Counted from the stretch's first letter, positions 12,052 to 18,848 are shown. The stretch is 51,534 nucleotides of DNA from an uncultured Candidatus Saccharibacteria bacterium (GCA_964554485.1 CAZKOX010000001.1:75363-126896), one strand, 5' to 3'. Program-made: numbers and translations. The notes: generated from the letters alone by a model not told the origin.

Positions 12052-12576
12052 ATGCGAATAATCTCTGGTAACTTAGGTGGTCGAAACTTTACTGCACCGC
12101 ATGGACACAAAACTCATCCAATGAGTGAAAAGATTCGGGGAGCTATCTTTAATGCACTCGGTGATATTGACGGTCTTACTTTTTTAGATGCCTTTGGTGG
12201 AACAGGAGCAATTGGTTTTGAAGCTCTTAGCCGCGGTGCAAAATCTGTTATTGCGGTGGATATAAGCAAGGAAGCCCACGACTCTATGCAAAAGAGTATT
12301 AAGATGCTAGGGGTAGGGAATAGTTTTAAGGCTATTCGCGCCAACGTTGCTAGCTGGTGCGAGAATAATCCAGATGCAAGGTTCGACATAGTGGTAGCCG
12401 ATCCGCCATATGATGACGTACCTGAAAACATACTTAACGTGTTAAGTAATTTTGTTAAACCTGGTGGGTTATATATATTGTCGCTTCCAAAGTCCTGCGA
12501 ATTTGTGCCAAAAAATCTAGAACTTCTATCAAAAAAGATTTACGACGAAGCCACGGTCAGCTTTTATCGAGTATAG
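12052..12576 (+). CDS. rsmD: 16S rRNA m2G966 methyltransferase RsmD family
   Basis: MRIISG..G, LDAFGGTGAIGFEALSRGA, DPPY. Confidence 0.9.
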   Translation: MRIISGNLGGRNFTAPHGHKTHPMSEKIRGAIFNALGDIDGLTFLDAFGGTGAIGFEALSRGAKSVIAVDISKEAHDSMQKSIKMLGVGNSFKAIRANVASWCENNPDARFDIVVADPPYDDVPENILNVLSNFVKPGGLYILSLPKSCEFVPKNLELLSKKIYDEATVSFYRV

Positions 12577-12657
12577 GGGTCGACATTTTTAAGCGTACGA
12601 AGTAAAATAGCAAGCGTCGTTTATCCGAGTAGAAGAATCATTTACAATCAAAGATAT

Positions 12658-12796
12658 GCGCGGGTGGCGAAATGTGAAGAGTGCCGGTGGCACTATGCAA
12701 GACCGGAGCCCTGGATTGCGAATGCAACCAAGGCGAGGTGGGGGCGCGACCGATTTGGTGGCTAGCCACCAAGTAGAATCGTGCCAGACGCACTAG
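12658..12796 (+). pseudogene. 5' fragment of tRNA-Leu interrupted in the D-loop by a 111-nt structured element (copy 1)
   Basis: 12658-12674 equals the first 17 nt of the tRNA and 12786-12796 (AGACGCACTAG) equals tRNA nt 20-30; the intervening 12675-12785 replaces GT. Confidence 0.85.
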
Positions 12797-12856
12797 TAAA
12801 AAGAAATAGCGGCTGAAGTTGACGGGTGAGTAGGTATAATTAACAATCAAGAATAT

Positions 12857-12940
12857 GCGCGGGTGGCGAAATGGTAGACGCACTAGCCTTAGGAGCTAGC
12901 GAGGCAACTCATGGAGGTTCAAGTCCTCTCCCGCGCACCA
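12857..12940 (+). tRNA. tRNA-Leu(TAG)
   Basis: Acceptor GCGCGGG/CCCGCGC; D-loop GG; anticodon arm CTAGC-CTTAGGA-GCTAG; long variable arm; T-arm GGAGG-TTCAAGT-CCTCT; encoded CCA. Confidence 0.98.
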
Positions 12941-12949
12941 AAACAATAT

Positions 12950-12978
12950 GCCGACCCTTGTGGTCGGCTTGTTGCTTT
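12950..12978 (+). terminator. Intrinsic terminator after tRNA-Leu
   Basis: GCCGACC-CTTGT-GGTCGGC followed by TTGTTGCTTT. Confidence 0.7.
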
Positions 12979-12986
12979 GTAGCCGC

Positions 12987-13113
12987 AGGACTTGAACCGT
13001 AGGTGAGATGAGCCGGTGGCTCATCGCAAGGCAGCTTTTCAGATTCAAAGCTATGTTTTGAGTTTGAAAAGTGCGGGGGCGCAGAATGTGCCCAAGTCCT
13101 CTCCCGCGCACCA
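12987..13113 (+). mobile_element. Structured tRNA-associated element (copy 2) ending in a 21-nt duplication of the tRNA 3' end
   Basis: 13093-13113 equals tRNA 12920-12940; 12987-12998 is antisense to the tRNA T-arm; three internal hairpins; motifs shared with copy 1. Confidence 0.75.
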
Positions 13114-13182
13114 ACCAGTCGACTTTTAAAACCAAGTCATTATTGACTAGGGTATGTGTAAGATGAGATATAATTGCACATA

Positions 13183-13665
13183 ATGATACGCCGCACTACT
13201 GCCAGGCCTAAGATAGGCTCAGTGGCGGATAGCGCTGAGCCTGGTAGCACAGACCTTAGCCCAGTCACTGACCTTGACTCCTTCCGGAGACGAGGCCTAG
13301 AGCCGCAGTATCCACCGGATGAGCTGCTTGAGTCGGTTAAGCCAGCTACAGCATGGATGACCTACTTCGTTATAGAGCTACCGACTGCATCTGCCATCCA
13401 CCCAGCACTCTACGATTGTGTCGAAGAACTTCTCGTCGGGCGCCGTCCAGTACTTGATTGCCAGACAGAATCACTTCGTGTTGCTTGCTGGCTAGAGTCC
13501 GAGACACAGGCGACGGCCAATGAGGAGGCCTACGCGGTTGGTCAAGCAGTTGTTGATCTTCTCGGATTATCGCCGGCCTCGATAGTCGAACACGTTCATC
13601 GCTTCTGGACTCGCGCCGACGGAATGATCGACGAAGAGCTGCCGGTTTTGATTCCGTCACTCTGA
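13183..13665 (+). CDS. Hypothetical protein, high GC, probably horizontally acquired
   Basis: ORF 13174-13665 with first ATG at 13183; about 60% GC in two hand-counted 60-nt lines, visibly above the flanking core genes. Confidence 0.6.
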   Translation: MIRRTTARPKIGSVADSAEPGSTDLSPVTDLDSFRRRGLEPQYPPDELLESVKPATAWMTYFVIELPTASAIHPALYDCVEELLVGRRPVLDCQTESLRVACWLESETQATANEEAYAVGQAVVDLLGLSPASIVEHVHRFWTRADGMIDEELPVLIPSL

Positions 13666-13891
13666 CTATTCGCGAACACCCACGGCAATAGAGACAACGG
13701 CAGCCATCAGACGACCATATTAGACTAGGATGGTCAGGTAGCTGCCAACGGCGAGAAGTAGTAAAATATCTTCGGCTGGGTCAGTGGTTGTTCAGACGCT
13801 GATCAAATGAACCGGAGAGAGGCCGGGCACCCAGCCGCCTTGTAAGATGACAGGAGTAAGGTATATAGGCTTGACCTTAATAAACCCATAC

Positions 13892-14338
13892 CTATAGACC
13901 CAAAGGATGAAGAAGAATTGCGCCAACCTTGATTGCCAGATCCTGACGAGCAAGGGCGTGAAGTATTCCACTTTCCATGTCGGACACGGTCAAGCCATGA
14001 ACATCCGTCAATTCTTCTACGGTCTGATCATATGTAGCTTGATAATCTGGTGATGAGAAAACATAAAGGGCACTCAAATCATGGGCGATCCGGCATCCAC
14101 GAACCCATGTGGCCAGATTTGGGCCAACAGATTCGGGGTCTGAGACATAAAGAAAGCCGGTAGCATCCTGTATGTCGGTCCCTGGGAAATCAAACCCTCT
14201 TTCTAGCAGATGTTCAAGAATGGGTTTGCCTTCACCCGCAGCAATCTTGTCGTACAGAAATTGTGTACAACCGCGCGGATTGTGTCGTTGGAATGATGCT
14301 TCGAATTTGCTCCGGGTAATTACAGCCATCAGTGTCAT
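13892..14338 (-). CDS. Hypothetical protein
   Basis: 148-aa ORF with plausible globular composition, divergent from the WhiB-like gene. Confidence 0.6.
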   Translation of the reverse strand: MTLMAVITRSKFEASFQRHNPRGCTQFLYDKIAAGEGKPILEHLLERGFDFPGTDIQDATGFLYVSDPESVGPNLATWVRGCRIAHDLSALYVFSSPDYQATYDQTVEELTDVHGLTVSDMESGILHALARQDLAIKVGAILLHPLGL

Positions 14339-14500
14339 TATAAATTGCTTACCCTCGTTTTATGTGTTGTGGAATGCTCTACGACTGTCTAGAGCGGGGT
14401 TATCATTGGCTTGACTGTTAATAAACCACTAAGAGACCCCACTTGCCCTTGTAAACCTATGAACATGTTTTATTTCGTTAACATATATAATATGAATATT

Positions 14501-14806
14501 ATGAGCTTAGATAGTCAGCCTGATGGCTTAGGAAATAACTGGTGGGCAAATTGGGCGGCCTGCGAGCAGCCTGGTTATGTAATTGATGAAAACTTCATTG
14601 TTTCTCCAGAAGATATACTAAGATCACCAATTGATACATATCGTAGACGGAAAGCTGCAAGAGAAATATGTAATTTGTGCCCGTTTTTTGAGGAATGTGA
14701 ACAAAATGCCAAAAGTTTTAAGGGTGAAGAACATGGTCAATACGGCAGAATATACGCCGGTAGGATATCAGTTTTACTACCCTTGGTCGGTGTTGTGCGG
14801 CTTTAG
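14501..14806 (+). CDS. WhiB-like (Wbl) Fe-S transcription regulator
   Basis: W-A-A-C21-x35-C57-x2-C60-x5-C66 plus GRIYAG turn (canonical G[VI]WGG); likely start ATG 14501 within ORF 14411-14806. Confidence 0.7.
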   Translation: MSLDSQPDGLGNNWWANWAACEQPGYVIDENFIVSPEDILRSPIDTYRRRKAAREICNLCPFFEECEQNAKSFKGEEHGQYGRIYAGRISVLLPLVGVVRL

Positions 14807-14840
14807 ATACTTATAAAGAATCATAGGTTCAACTCTAACA

Positions 14841-14868
14841 TTGACAATACTGTTAAAGCTTATATAAT
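14841..14868 (+). promoter_or_regulatory. sigma70 promoter of the His leader / original hisS
   Basis: TTGACA-16nt-TATAAT. Confidence 0.75.
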
Positions 14869-14878
14869 ACTAAGCGTA

Positions 14879-14932
14879 ATGACAACTAATATCACCAGTC
14901 ATACACATCTGTCGCTCCGGTTGATCGGTTAA
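14879..14932 (+). CDS. Putative attenuator leader peptide MTTNITSHTHLSLRLIG
   Basis: 17-codon ORF right after the promoter, with His codons at positions 8 and 10, ending in the antiterminator arm. Confidence 0.6.
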   Translation: MTTNITSHTHLSLRLIG

Positions 14933-14953
14933 CTTTCGATTTATTCATATCTT

Positions 14954-14983
14954 AACGCTCCGATCTACGGAGCGTTTTTCTTT
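14954..14983 (+). terminator. Attenuator terminator
   Basis: AACGCTCCG-ATCTA-CGGAGCGTT followed by TTTCTTT. Confidence 0.85.
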
Positions 14984-15013
14984 ACAAAACAAACTAAATT
15001 ACTAAGGATGAGA

Positions 15014-15125
15014 TAAAATGAAAGCAAATATGTCACAAATTACACAAAGCTACAAAGGAACAAGAGATTTTTACCCCGAAGATAAACGCCTCCAGAAATG
15101 GATGTTTGGCGTAATGCGGTCGGCT
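15014..15125 (+). repeat. 112-bp perfect direct repeat of the hisS 5' end (left copy)
   Basis: Base-by-base identical to 18737-18848. Confidence 0.95.
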
Positions 15126-15158
15126 TGTTGTTTTGTAGCCGCAGGACTTGAACCGTAG
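15018..15158 (+). pseudogene. Truncated hisS fragment (36 HisS codons plus 10 element-derived codons)
   Basis: Same start as hisS; frame runs into element copy 3 and stops at TAG 15156-15158. Confidence 0.85.
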
Positions 15159-15177
15159 GTGAGAAGAGCCGGCGGCT
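15118..15177 (+). repeat. Partial copy 3 of the tRNA terminator arm plus structured element
   Basis: 57/60 nt identical to 12962-13021. Confidence 0.92.
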
Positions 15178-15251
15178 TACTAATGTATAGAATGTAGAAA
15201 AAATGCTAAAATTATCGTAAGAACTATGAGTTCAGATCATTTTGGGGTGAC

Positions 15252-18200
15252 ATGCAACAAAAAGTTATAAAAGCGATAAAAAACAAACTATTTCATTTGG
15301 CATTATTTGGTGCGCTACTGCTATTGGTACTGCTTAGCATTAATAATAAATCTGTGCATGCTACAACCTATAGGGACACTATCCTTGCCGAGCCTACGCT
15401 ACTGAACTATTGGCCGATGGATGAGGCTTCTGGTGCTACAAGCCTAAGTCCGGCAGCAGGTGGTACGGTAATTAATCTTACAGGGGCTACGGTAGGTTTA
15501 AGTGGTCAAGTCGACGGAACGGCAGTCTCGTTTAATGGCACAACAAACTTCGGTGTGACCGCATCAAATCTTGACTATACTTCGTACAGTAAACTTGTCG
15601 TTGAAGCACTAATCTTTGTTAGCAGTTACGATAACTCAATACGTATAACTTGGGAACTAAGTCCCTCGGCACTTTCTAATCAAGGAGCATTTTATTTTGC
15701 CCAGGATGTAGGCGGAACTAACAGCCCAACACTTAAGGGTGACGGGGGGTTTAATAACGCAGAATATACTAGACCATCTGCTGGGCAATGGCATCTTTTT
15801 ACGATGGTATACGACACAAGCCCTGGCTCCAATGAAGTAGAAGCATATATTGACGGCGACCTGCAGACTCCTACGAGTAGGCCATTTAACGTAAATAACA
15901 CAAATAACTTTGGAAACTTTGCCTTGTACTTAATGTCGCGAGGCGGTGGAAGTTTTTTTAGCGCTGGCAAGATGCAACACCTGGCAATATATAGTGACCT
16001 GAGTAGTAGCCAGATTGCATTGCATGCTCAAGCAGCGGGTTTGCGCGAACTTCTTCCTGGTACGCTTTCAGAAAGTTCTCGAACCACTACAAGTGCTACG
16101 GTCAGTTGGACTAGCGCAAGCAATGTGTTTAATCCACCTATTATCGCTCAACTACAGCGATCTGCCCATGGTGCGAACAGTTGGTCGAACGTTTCTGGTG
16201 CAACAAGTAGTCCGGCAGTAGACACAGGCTTGAGTGTAGATACAAGCTACGATTATCGAGTTGCTTATACGGACGCTACTGCAACAACTGTGTATTCAAA
16301 TACGCTCGTAGTTACGACCATGAAAGTCTATCCACCGTATACAGCAAATTCTGACACCGTAATTGTTGGTCCGTATGATACAGCCAGATCTGGTGCTGGC
16401 AATTGGAGCCCCGGAGCTGCCGGTTCTGTCCAGTGGCTTGTAGATGGTCATCAATATCGGGTCAGACAATCAGGAACAATCAATCGGCTTAGAATATATA
16501 CACCAAATAATACGAATCTCACTGGATTTTATCTACAAATATGGAGAAAAAATGGTACTACATACGATTTGGTCGGCCAAAGCAACAATATCGCTAGTAG
16601 TTTAGCAAATGCCAGCTTCTCAACTGTAGATTTATTAACCCCAATTTCGGGAGTTCAGATTGGCGATTTTTATGGGGCGCGTATGGAAACATCAGGTTCT
16701 GCTGCAAGTTTTTATGCATATAACCCTGGTAGCGTGGTTAGTAAATTTATCGTAAACCAAACTGCTTCGTTGACAGGGATGGATTGGGCAGCCCAATTTT
16801 CTTCAGCAACTGTCGTACCGATTGAAATGTATATGAGTCCTGCGCCACAAGTAGTGTTTATTGGTGACTCAATTTTCCAGGGCGTTCCTGGTAATTATAG
16901 TTTTTTGGATCCGACTGATACTACAAATTTAGCATCTTCGATCGAGGGTCAGTTTAGTGGTATAACGGGATATACCTATCAGAACATGGGTAAGGGAAGT
17001 GATACAACTGCGATTATAACCTCACGTTTTACCAATGACGTTATAAATTTGCACCCCAGAATCGTTGTTATGGAAGGTGGCGTGAATGATATATATGGTG
17101 GTGCGGTCACAAAGGCGCAATTTTTGGCTAACTGGACTACAAATCTTGCCGCCGCTCAAGCCAGCAGCAGCATTTCGAAAATATTGGTTTTAAAAATTTT
17201 GCCCTGGACTAATGGCACGAATGTACAGAATCAAACGAGAGATGATTGGAACGCTGCTTTAGAAACACTAGTTGCAAACTACTCTAAAGCTACAGTGGTG
17301 GACGCAAGCACATATGTAGGCCAATTTAGATCTGGGGGTGACGTAGGGAATCTATGGGATATACAAACAGCATTTAGCGCCGATGGCGTTCATTTTAACC
17401 AAACCGGACATGGCCAGATTGCTCAGGCGCTAGTGGATTCCATCGATACTACGATACCAACCATTACTAATATCTCTTCTAATAAGGTTAATGGTTATTA
17501 CAAAACAGGGGAAGTCATAGATATTGATATTACTTTTTCTGAAGCCGTAAGCTCGACTGGCGACGTGACAGTAACATTAGAAACTGGAGCAACCGACCGG
17601 ACTTGTACATTTACTGTCACTAGCAGCACAACCGGTACCTGCAACTATACTGTTCAAGCCGGGGATGCGTCAGATGACCTCACAGTTAGCTTAATTTCTG
17701 GTACTATCGCCGACGAAGTTGAAAACTCTATGTCCGTCTTTAGCCCTGTGACAAATCTTGCGGCGAATAAGACATTGATTATTGATACGAGAGCGCCAAC
17801 GATATCAGCCGTTACGCTAATATCATCCCCGACAAGTGATGTCACTCCAAGTTACGCCTTTACGACTGACGAGACTGGCACTGTCGGTTATGGCGGCGCT
17901 TGCAGCTCAACAACTACAACCGCGCTTGCTGGGGTTAACATCGTTACTTTTATATCATTAGCCGATGGAACATATACCAATTGTACGATTACAATTACCG
18001 ACACAGCTACAAATGTATCTAATACGCTAGCAGTAGCCAGCTTTACTATCGATACCTCTACGCCTGCATCAACATCAGCGCCTGCTCCTGTGACTGCAAC
18101 TTCTTCGACAATCGATGATATCCCTGAACCAGAAGTTGAGCAGGTAAGATATAACACAGTCACTTTCGCTAACTCTAGTAACGGTGCCGCTATCCAGCTT

Positions 18201-18686
18201 GAAACCCCTGAAGGCACTACAATAACTTGTTCTGCCTCAGTAGCTGAGAGTACGCTAAGTAACCAAGATTCTGAACATAGTTACCCCGTGGGACTAGTCG
18301 ACTTCTGCCTTACTGTACCTATCGGATCAACTAACACTATAAAACTAACATTTGTAACTAATCTTGCCCTAGATGACGTAATGGCGTTTAAATTCAGCAA
18401 CGAAGTCGGCACATATACAGAAGTGCGGAATGCAACTATTACAGAAACAATGTTAGGTAATCAGCGTGCCTTGTTGGTTGCTTACCAGGTAACAGATGGC
18501 GGCGAACTAGACGGCGACAGTACTGTAAACGGGACAATTCTTGATCCAATTGGGTTGGCTGCTTCTAATGATCCAGAGTCCAGTATCAGTACAACGACTC
18601 CACCGTATTTGTTGATTACGCTTAGCATAATTGGAGTTAGTGGGTTACTTATATTTATAGCAGCTAACATTAGGGCTAGGCGCTAG
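15252..18686 (+). CDS. Large surface protein: signal peptide, LamG/ConA-like, FN3, SGNH hydrolase, Ig-like repeats, choice-of-anchor-U-like domain, C-terminal TM
   Basis: Signal ending VHA; LLNYWPMDE..WHLFTMVYD..YIDG (LamG); FIGDSI, GGVND and DGVH (SGNH blocks); DGGELDGDSTVNGTILDP; hydrophobic tail plus RARR. Confidence 0.8.
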   Translation: MQQKVIKAIKNKLFHLALFGALLLLVLLSINNKSVHATTYRDTILAEPTLLNYWPMDEASGATSLSPAAGGTVINLTGATVGLSGQVDGTAVSFNGTTNFGVTASNLDYTSYSKLVVEALIFVSSYDNSIRITWELSPSALSNQGAFYFAQDVGGTNSPTLKGDGGFNNAEYTRPSAGQWHLFTMVYDTSPGSNEVEAYIDGDLQTPTSRPFNVNNTNNFGNFALYLMSRGGGSFFSAGKMQHLAIYSDLSSSQIALHAQAAGLRELLPGTLSESSRTTTSATVSWTSASNVFNPPIIAQLQRSAHGANSWSNVSGATSSPAVDTGLSVDTSYDYRVAYTDATATTVYSNTLVVTTMKVYPPYTANSDTVIVGPYDTARSGAGNWSPGAAGSVQWLVDGHQYRVRQSGTINRLRIYTPNNTNLTGFYLQIWRKNGTTYDLVGQSNNIASSLANASFSTVDLLTPISGVQIGDFYGARMETSGSAASFYAYNPGSVVSKFIVNQTASLTGMDWAAQFSSATVVPIEMYMSPAPQVVFIGDSIFQGVPGNYSFLDPTDTTNLASSIEGQFSGITGYTYQNMGKGSDTTAIITSRFTNDVINLHPRIVVMEGGVNDIYGGAVTKAQFLANWTTNLAAAQASSSISKILVLKILPWTNGTNVQNQTRDDWNAALETLVANYSKATVVDASTYVGQFRSGGDVGNLWDIQTAFSADGVHFNQTGHGQIAQALVDSIDTTIPTITNISSNKVNGYYKTGEVIDIDITFSEAVSSTGDVTVTLETGATDRTCTFTVTSSTTGTCNYTVQAGDASDDLTVSLISGTIADEVENSMSVFSPVTNLAANKTLIIDTRAPTISAVTLISSPTSDVTPSYAFTTDETGTVGYGGACSSTTTTALAGVNIVTFISLADGTYTNCTITITDTATNVSNTLAVASFTIDTSTPASTSAPAPVTATSSTIDDIPEPEVEQVRYNTVTFANSSNGAAIQLETPEGTTITCSASVAESTLSNQDSEHSYPVGLVDFCLTVPIGSTNTIKLTFVTNLALDDVMAFKFSNEVGTYTEVRNATITETMLGNQRALLVAYQVTDGGELDGDSTVNGTILDPIGLAASNDPESSISTTTPPYLLITLSIIGVSGLLIFIAANIRARR

Positions 18687-18736
18687 CTTAACCAGAAACT
18701 ACTATGCAAACCAGCTATAAATTACTAAATATGCAG

Positions 18737-18848
18737 TAAAATGAAAGCAAATATGTCACAAATTACACAAAGCTACAAAGGAACAAGAGATTTTTACCCC
18801 GAAGATAAACGCCTCCAGAAATGGATGTTTGGCGTAATGCGGTCGGCT
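18737..18848 (+). repeat. 112-bp direct repeat (right copy, start of intact hisS)
   Basis: Identical to 15014-15125. Confidence 0.95.

Follow-up and report, generated by a model that had tools for sequence, protein, structure and literature searches.

Strand-specific folded elements in tRNA gene fragments of Candidatus Saccharibacteria: a probably mobile, non-autonomous family

Bacterial genomes harbour several kinds of short, gene-free, multi-copy and strongly structured sequences, including the RPE, REP/BIME, BOX, RUP and Correia elements, which can sit in protein and RNA genes and whose mover acts in trans or is unidentified. Systems of the IS200/IS605 kind, together with PATE and the TnpB omega-RNA, are strand-specific, use single-strand hairpins and leave no target duplication, and in IS200/IS605 systems a structured RNA at the element end is followed by flanking target sequence. 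IS200/IS605 elements insert 3′ of a fixed tetra- or pentanucleotide, and no target bases are removed. The R2-type non-long-terminal-repeat retrotransposons of eukaryotes and their derivatives without open reading frames (ORFs) occupy one defined place in a structural RNA gene, in one orientation and with a small fixed loss, and archaeal bulge-helix-bulge (BHB) tRNA introns, likewise small and structured, interrupt the D-loop, the T-loop and other parts of tRNA genes and show signs of having transposed from one such gene to another. Lastly, tRNA-targeting integrative elements, CIMEs and the tRNA-linked repeats of E. coli named in PMC8144298 are recognised by a partial tRNA repeat beside an intact gene, running from the T-loop in 3′ cases. 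Here we describe a family of elements, labelled E, two members of which flank a tRNA-Leu gene in a 51,534-nucleotide (nt) stretch of DNA (the window) from an uncultured Candidatus Saccharibacteria bacterium (GCA_964554485.1 CAZKOX010000001.1:75363-126896). E resembles each of these systems in part. It is probably a non-autonomous mobile element, defined by its structure and aimed at the exposed loops of tRNA genes, that survives only where an intact gene copy has been rebuilt next to it. Positions are counted on the whole window, and features are on the + strand.

A first-pass annotation, made from the sequence alone, had reported three copies of a structured element docked on tRNA-Leu fragments. 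Two of them are intact members of E, and the coordinates and layout proposed for these were correct:

12674..12785, + strand: E copy 1, subtype A, with an extra palindromic hairpin in P3 (covariance model match, fold, 3-nt replacement)
13003..13092, + strand: E copy 2, subtype B, at the T-loop position of a 3′ partial tRNA-Leu copy (covariance model match, fold)

Both read GUGAGA-P1-YGCAAGG-P2-GGGG-P3, that is, three hairpins (P1 to P3) separated by conserved single-stranded joints (5′-GUGAGA, YGCAAGG and GGGG), with a conserved G.U pair in P3. The first stems differ in a compensatory manner, as the annotation had noticed, AGTGCC/GGCACT in copy 1 corresponding to GATGAGCC/GGCTCATC in copy 2; likewise, the 17-bp stem of copy 2 folds with precisely three G.U pairs, and the 18-nt palindrome of copy 1, TTGGTGGCTAGCCACCAA, is genuine. 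Folding compared with shuffled sequences gives z = -4.3 for copy 1 and z = -6.0 for copy 2, and the folding energy of copy 2 is -43.4 kcal/mol on the + strand versus -29.5 kcal/mol on the - strand. A repeat scan found no inverted repeat joining the ends of either copy.

BLAST searches in relatives returned homologues of copy 2 that adjoin genes for tRNA-Leu, tRNA-Trp, tRNA-Lys and tRNA-Arg. Fourteen copies align to the common layout, on which RNAalifold places 20 pairs, 14 of them with compensatory changes, and a covariance model built on these aligned copies (R1) recovers copy 1 with an expectation value of 5.4e-15 (68 bits) and copy 2 with one of 4.6e-20 (88 bits). The genome under study (660 kb, 97%-complete) contains eight copies by this search. 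When the model was extended to another 46 copies, 97.9% of cells were paired, and both sides had changed in 16 of the 20 pairs; none of 500 shuffles reaches the observed level, slid partners fall to 24-53%, and the P3 G.U pair is kept at its fixed place in 41 of the 46. Pairing, double changes and the kept G.U pair together indicate that the fold is selected on this strand only, as the annotation had proposed when it suggested selection on a single-stranded fold.

The family is about 87-112 nt in length, carries no gene and is widespread in one order. R1 matched 177 of 301 sampled Saccharimonadales genomes, representing 138 of 218 genera, the number of copies per genome running from 0 to at least 14 across the sample and often being 14 or more; in an even sample of the phylum, E was confined to Saccharimonadales apart from one weak match in the same class, its carriers being Candidatus Saccharibacteria / Saccharimonadales. 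The covariance search that had been suggested for this element thus yields both strong covariation and homologues beside tRNA fragments across the order. Rfam 15 recognises the tRNA alone in the window at the gathering score, and at an expectation value of up to 10 over 12500-15300 nothing overlaps the E copies, a chance microRNA match on the other strand (17.5 bits, 12917-12996) stopping before copy 2. A full-text literature search found no description of E, which is apparently a family new to Rfam and to the searchable literature, in agreement with the earlier remark that it matched no named family. A metagenome pattern scan found nine loci. A viral origin was considered and rejected, the same kind of scan of IMG/VR giving 0 matches and phage records just two chance 37-nt matches.

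The surroundings of copies 1 and 2 indicate how E sits in its targets:

12590..12657, + strand: U, upstream region of a tRNA-Leu pseudo-copy (alignment, repeats D3/D9, promoter scan)
12658..12673, + strand: tRNA-Leu 5′ fragment, nt 1-16 (acceptor 5′ strand and start of the D-arm), same as in the real gene
12786..12796, + strand: tRNA-Leu fragment, nt 20-30 (repeat D4)
12797..12856, + strand: spacer S, with a promoter-like site TTGACG at 12819, preceding the intact gene (promoter scan, alignment)
12857..12940, + strand: intact tRNA-Leu(UAG) with encoded CCA (ARAGORN; Rfam tRNA, 58.6 bits)
12950..12968, + strand: bidirectional terminator hairpin, 3′ arm GGTCGGCT (terminator and repeat scans)
12980..13002, + strand: degenerate inverted tRNA-Leu 3′ half TAGCCGCAGGACTTGAACC (12980-12998), then the T-stem remnant GTAG (sequence)
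13093..13113, + strand: tRNA-Leu nt 64-84, comprising the rest of the T-loop, the T-stem 3′ strand, the acceptor 3′ strand and CCA (repeat D5, 22/22)

Copy 1, an insert of 112 nt, takes the place of GGT, corresponding to G18 G19 U20 of the tRNA-Leu D-loop. About 60 nt of diverged upstream region have been duplicated along with tRNA nt 1-16: U, in whose region a promoter scan places a promoter-like site (12580-12608), is ~65-70% homologous to the spacer S of the real gene, while the tRNA parts are identical. The same arrangement is general. Among 51 E copies examined, ~44 lie in or against tRNA gene fragments, and a tRNA of the same identity as the fragment, wherever one is nearby, is always on the strand of E. 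Wherever both flanks could be aligned to the adjoining intact tRNA, exactly 3 tRNA nt are missing (24 of 24 cases), the replaced triplet being GGT or GTT in 22, GTA in one and GAA in one, hence G-N-N, and the bases upstream of E vary (AAT, AAC, GTT, GAG, GGG). Insertion sites are the D-loop, T-loop, variable loop and anticodon loop of a partial tRNA copy that adjoins an intact gene; one additional site, read by eye, is at the acceptor/D junction.

Two layouts recur. Up-type copies consist of the tRNA start, E, a few target nt, a short inverted copy of the target arm without E, an AT-rich linker and the intact tRNA, which in T-loop hits begins 38-48 nt past E. In down-type copies, the intact tRNA is followed by a terminator, an inverted tRNA 3′ half, a T-stem, E, the tRNA from T-loop to CCA and a second terminator, E beginning 64-80 nt past the tRNA; the inverted 3′ half to the left of copy 2 has counterparts in 13 or more copies of this type.

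These flanks separate E from several of the systems described above. Unlike RPE, REP and Correia elements, E has no terminal inverted repeats, causes no target duplication, keeps a fixed orientation to its host gene, replaces exactly 3 nt, strongly prefers tRNA loops and is accompanied by a regenerated tRNA copy; the terminal inverted repeats and target-site duplication that define miniature inverted-repeat transposable elements and Correia elements are thus replaced here by a 3-nt loss. Reading E as an intron was rejected, because all of the interrupted tRNA copies inspected are truncated (nt 1-16 plus 20-30 around copy 1, nt 64-84 only at copy 2) and 3 nt are lost. In contrast to archaeal BHB introns, E resides in a bacterial host and lacks a BHB motif, and its truncated tRNA copies cannot yield a spliced tRNA. 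A group II intron would be resembled by E only in the 5′ GUGAGA, which recalls GUGYG; at 87-112 nt, E has three hairpins, no Rfam intron match and no accompanying RVT_1 domain, in addition to the loss of 3 nt. The fragments do not represent a transfer-messenger RNA or a permuted tRNA either, since ARAGORN reports tRNA-Leu only and they contain no anticodon region.

The tRNA sequence adjoining E also bears on two rival explanations. The first-pass annotation had pointed to 11-21 nt of tRNA-matching sequence 3′ of each intact copy and put forward a scaffold-plus-guide RNA, akin to an omega-RNA or a bridge RNA, whose 3′ tRNA tail would guide a nuclease or recombinase. The 11-21 nt are present and the scaffold is conserved and structured, as such an RNA would require, but tRNA sequence lies on both sides of copy 1, as it does around E elsewhere, and is continuous except for the 3 missing nt, which identifies it as the remnant of a target rather than as a guide. 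Moreover, E copies in topA, in a tRNA-Glu promoter and in genome G005 have no tRNA tail, and all 21 relatives searched lack TnpB and IS110. We therefore regard a guide RNA as highly improbable.

Even less credence is given to the possibility that the tRNA fragments are attL/attR scars of integrase islands, with E as cargo next to the att site in a CIME-like remnant. Copy 2 does have the classical appearance, a short insert being placed between an intact tRNA and a directly repeated tRNA 3′ end that starts in the T-loop, and a strain-specific island adjoins it. However, E lies inside the repeated tRNA segment, interrupting it with a loss of 3 nt, and its other positions include 5′ fragments as well as D-, variable and anticodon loops; the DNA that would have been integrated amounts to ~150 nt, the island being outside the tRNA-to-fragment interval; no integrase is encoded in the window, and the only tyrosine recombinase of the genome is a single Xer-like gene outside it. 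In topA and the tRNA-Glu promoter, E alone is the inserted unit, none of the loci inspected contains a full-length integrase island bounded by E-containing att sites, and the inverted, E-less target copy beside many E copies sets them further apart from CIME-type remnants.

Several observations on individual loci accompany these layouts. The 38 nt at 12616-12653 upstream of the pseudo-copy, which are the part resembling the promoter region of the real tRNA, become ATTGTCT in a diverged strain (runs X41-X44), so the duplicated promoter piece is itself polymorphic. Four E copies are found at one tRNA-Leu(UAG) locus in CALRAM010000001.1 (L111, 1289-1986), two of them in the same upstream pseudo-copy, replacing GCT in the anticodon loop and GTT in the T-loop, and the remaining two as tandem down-type units, each with its own terminator. 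In L070 (CAZPVS010000010.1, 2740-2915), the terminator and inverted tRNA piece are ~90% alike, by our own reading, to window positions 12941-13113, although the genome is distant (hisS protein 63% identical) and the E inside the unit is quite different; either one element took the place of another at a constant site or the unit passed between genomes. Elsewhere in the genome studied here (C1:43389-43660, outside the window), ARAGORN reports a tRNA of undetermined identity and a UCA-anticodon tRNA labelled SeC adjoining tRNA-Val. The whole assembly contains 31 recognisable tRNAs, several at contig ends, and assemblies seem to break at tRNA loci. Two sequence features near E were tried as functional signals and rejected. 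The TTGAACC/TTCGAACC motif past up-type copies has the wrong spacing to -10-like boxes for a promoter; it is the reverse complement of the 5′ half of the T-arm and co-varies with the tRNA T-loop. A guide-like pairing of the last 3 nt of E with the flank (GAC/GTC) is inconsistent across copies.

Indications of movement come in part from sites that exist with and without E. At tRNA-Glu(CUC), three alleles are found within the genus. The congener G001 has an empty site, GAGGTGT-GTT-AGTATC followed by the tRNA; the genome studied here has E in place of that GTT in the tRNA-Glu promoter, without any duplication; and in G002 a partial tRNA copy carries E in its D-loop, accompanied by an inverted piece of the D-arm and by a new linker. 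As the empty G001 allele has no partial duplication, the duplication comes with a hit in the tRNA body and does not precede it. A second site is the 3′ end of topA in the same genome (C3:37868-37972; L012:869-973, minus strand), where E truncates the basic C-terminal tail of TopA and the old tail is left as a 31-aa ORF just downstream; a metagenome contig of a relative provides moderate support for the corresponding site without E. At the tRNA-Leu(UAG) and tRNA-Pro loci of congeners, other E subtypes occupy other positions, and one orthologous E copy has lost P2 by an internal deletion. The earlier suggestion of a non-autonomous, tRNA-associated mobile family without a counterpart in Rfam is supported by these data, as is its corollary that an activity acting in trans is needed.

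Profiles of possible movers were searched in this genome and in 21 relatives. RVT_1, the reverse transcriptase domain, has 0 matches in this 97%-complete genome and occurs in 3 of the 21 relatives, none of them E-rich, which distinguishes E from R2-type elements, as these are eukaryotic and need a reverse transcriptase; E also lacks a poly(A) or other 3′ tail features. This genome lacks both TnpB and IS110. None of the 21 relatives has the TnpB domain, and none has IS110 (PF01548), the DEDD transposase with which a bridge RNA would co-occur, in a search whose positive controls matched. A search for Y2/IS91 gave no match in any control genome. Y1_Tnp, with 0 matches in this genome, occurs in 7 of the 21 relatives, and its distribution does not track E: it is absent from the E-rich genomes G003, G005, G010 and G015 and present in the E-free G006. 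The partner enzymes suggested by the first-pass annotation (TnpB, IS110, a reverse transcriptase or an HUH enzyme) are excluded as far as these searches reach.

The Y1_Tnp results also weigh on the view that E derives from IS200/IS605 or from a REP/RAYT-type, palindrome-associated system, moving as single-stranded DNA with a Y1 HUH transposase in trans. Its strand-specific fold and its lack of inverted terminal repeats and of target duplication would suit such an origin, as would the RAYT-sized Y1_Tnp frames in the seven relatives. The distribution just described contradicts it, together with the absence of TnpB from all 21 genomes, the removal of exactly 3 nt and the absence of a constant upstream motif, and a derivation of this kind appears very unlikely. 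The Y1_Tnp frames themselves are 194-242 aa long in G001, G002, G006, G011, G013, G016 and G017, with up to six per genome; they cover just the C-terminal two-thirds of the profile and are about the size of RAYT proteins.

A number of results tell against mobility. No mover was found among the candidates searched. The eight E copies of this genome all differ, and hence give no sign of recent transposition within it. The topA empty site is represented by a single low-depth contig at ~88% identity. In metatranscriptome-run contigs of a ~10% diverged strain, the block formed by tRNA nt 1-16, copy 1 and tRNA nt 20-30 has one difference in 143 nt, a change that keeps its pair as G.U, while the same contigs have 18 differences in 166 nt of the upstream gene and 11 in 60 nt of the spacer; the block is under strong constraint or was recently exchanged, and looks more like a constrained functional RNA, or the product of such an exchange, than like drifting junk. 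Finally, the restoring patch, a direct and inverted re-copy with foreign-looking promoter or terminator, fits no demonstrated pathway.

Some of these results would be expected if E were a non-coding RNA module useful to the host, with a processing, decoy or regulatory role, that is expressed from tRNA transcription units and spread as a by-product of tRNA gene duplication or conversion, without transposition. The structure is strongly conserved in nearly every copy; copy 1 is as conserved between diverged strains as the tRNA, with variable flanks; E is co-oriented and probably co-transcribed with tRNAs; and it occurs in the majority of genera of an order whose genomes are very small. Contigs from metatranscriptome runs extend from the upstream gene across copy 1 to the tRNA 3′ end, and transcription of copy 1 is probable, DNA carry-over being possible. 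A useful module is nevertheless difficult to reconcile with a copy number that is 0 in some genomes and at least 14 in others, with an occupancy that is patchy among members of one genus, with empty and occupied alleles at orthologous sites, or with an orthologous copy devoid of P2. The topA frame is cut short by one copy and a tRNA promoter interrupted by another, and the exchange of precisely 3 nt at many different sites marks an insertion process. On balance, we consider a host-useful RNA unlikely, if clearly the most credible of the alternatives to a mobile element.

The favoured explanation, a mobile element directed at tRNA loops, can be given a mechanism in outline. Because the loops of a tRNA exist only in a folded single strand, and because E is itself kept as a fold, element and target would both be recognised as folded single strands. 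The recognised strand could be displaced or lagging sense-strand DNA, or RNA, the DNA route being likelier as the genome has no reverse transcriptase. E is exchanged, as a discrete unit and in one orientation, for three G-N-N nt in a cloverleaf loop, and the activity responsible would act in trans and is presumably not one of the enzymes usually considered. Because cells would not survive a hit in their only copy of a tRNA gene, the surviving hits would all lie in a partial copy beside a regenerated intact gene. The patch that regenerates it would be a direct re-copy of the missing part of the tRNA with its own promoter or terminator, often bringing a short inverted copy of the target without E, and might either be a product of the insertion pathway or have been selected later. 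Strand switching in repair or replication is suggested by the inverted pieces without E and by the palindromes centred on terminators. Since the promoters and terminators of patches are unlike the native ones (compare U with S), the patch may come from diverged DNA. In this mechanism E would be selfish rather than useful.

We also advance, tentatively, a more far-reaching proposal, to which we attach a good deal less confidence than to mobility as such. E might represent a new class of mobile element that is a mere folded strand, inserted into folded sense-strand tRNA loops, always in exchange for 3 nt, by a widespread host activity and not by a dedicated transposase; the insertion pathway would itself produce the direct-plus-inverted patch and so restore the gene, by switching strands at the hairpins of the T-arm, the D-arm or the terminator.

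The third copy reported by the first-pass annotation, described there as a truncated 57/60 match to copy 2 (15118-15177), has another origin, which is related to a strain-specific region to the right of the tRNA gene:

15115..15177, + strand: "copy 3", 59/63 duplicate of 12959-13021
14995..15125, + strand: hisS 5′-end duplicate (-23 to +108), 131 nt, 96% identical to 18718-18848
12942..14839, no strand: block absent from close strains, comprising terminator, copy 2, 3′ fragment and a higher-GC island of three ORFs (X4/X6 contigs, GC profile, Pfam)

Most of copy 3 is not element sequence: only its last 19 nt (15159-15177) belong to E, as a passenger stub equal to the first 19 nt of P1, which R1 does not detect, and the remainder corresponds to what lies just before copy 2, namely half of the terminator and the inverted tRNA piece. 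Copy 3 is fused to the hisS duplicate at the octamer GGTCGGCT, the 3′ arm of the tRNA-Leu terminator, which hisS shares and which forms the microhomology at the junction. It is best read not as an insertion event but as DNA carried along when a block with the gene of a 1144-aa surface protein was illegitimately joined into hisS at an 8-nt microhomology. As at the tRNA genes, an essential gene, here hisS, was thus struck and made whole again, in this case by a copy of its start that the block had brought with it.

In close strains, hisS directly follows tRNA-Leu. Contigs from metagenome runs X4 and X6 have zero differences to 12300-12941, skip 12942-14839, resume at 14840-15125 and enter an intact hisS. 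These strains contain copy 1 and the tRNA, and are without copy 2, its tRNA fragment and the three-ORF island. Also missing from them is the block at 15126-18717, to which the copy-3 stub and the gene of the 1144-aa protein, with its GDSL domain, belong. The left side being identical to the window and the right side 7% diverged, a recombination breakpoint lies there, and the allele without copy 2 is either the ancestral state or a deletion. The 1144-aa protein, encoded between the hisS 5′ duplicate and the real hisS, looks secreted and bears a GDSL/SGNH hydrolase domain. The strain-specific island (13114-14839) has a G+C content of 0.52-0.55 versus ~0.42 and holds three small ORFs; one of them (14411-14806) is a borderline WhiB-like match (Pfam 23.5 bits against a cut-off of 23.6). 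As Saccharibacteria live on actinobacterial hosts, finding a gene of the WhiB kind in one of them would be of note.

Few mobile elements are recognised in the tiny genomes of Saccharibacteria, yet E is present in over half of the sampled genomes of the order, in up to a dozen or more copies. Should E be mobile, it would have found a safe route into essential genes, and would point to an insertion activity that reads folded single strands and may be of interest as a site-specific insertion tool; if the folded-strand element with its self-built patch proves true, it could spread into genes that are both essential and single-copy, in genomes that are among the smallest known. Should E instead be a functional RNA, few unassigned RNA families of the candidate phyla radiation would be as widespread. 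On either account, E creates tRNA pseudo-fragments and breaks assemblies at tRNA loci, and annotation pipelines should account for it.

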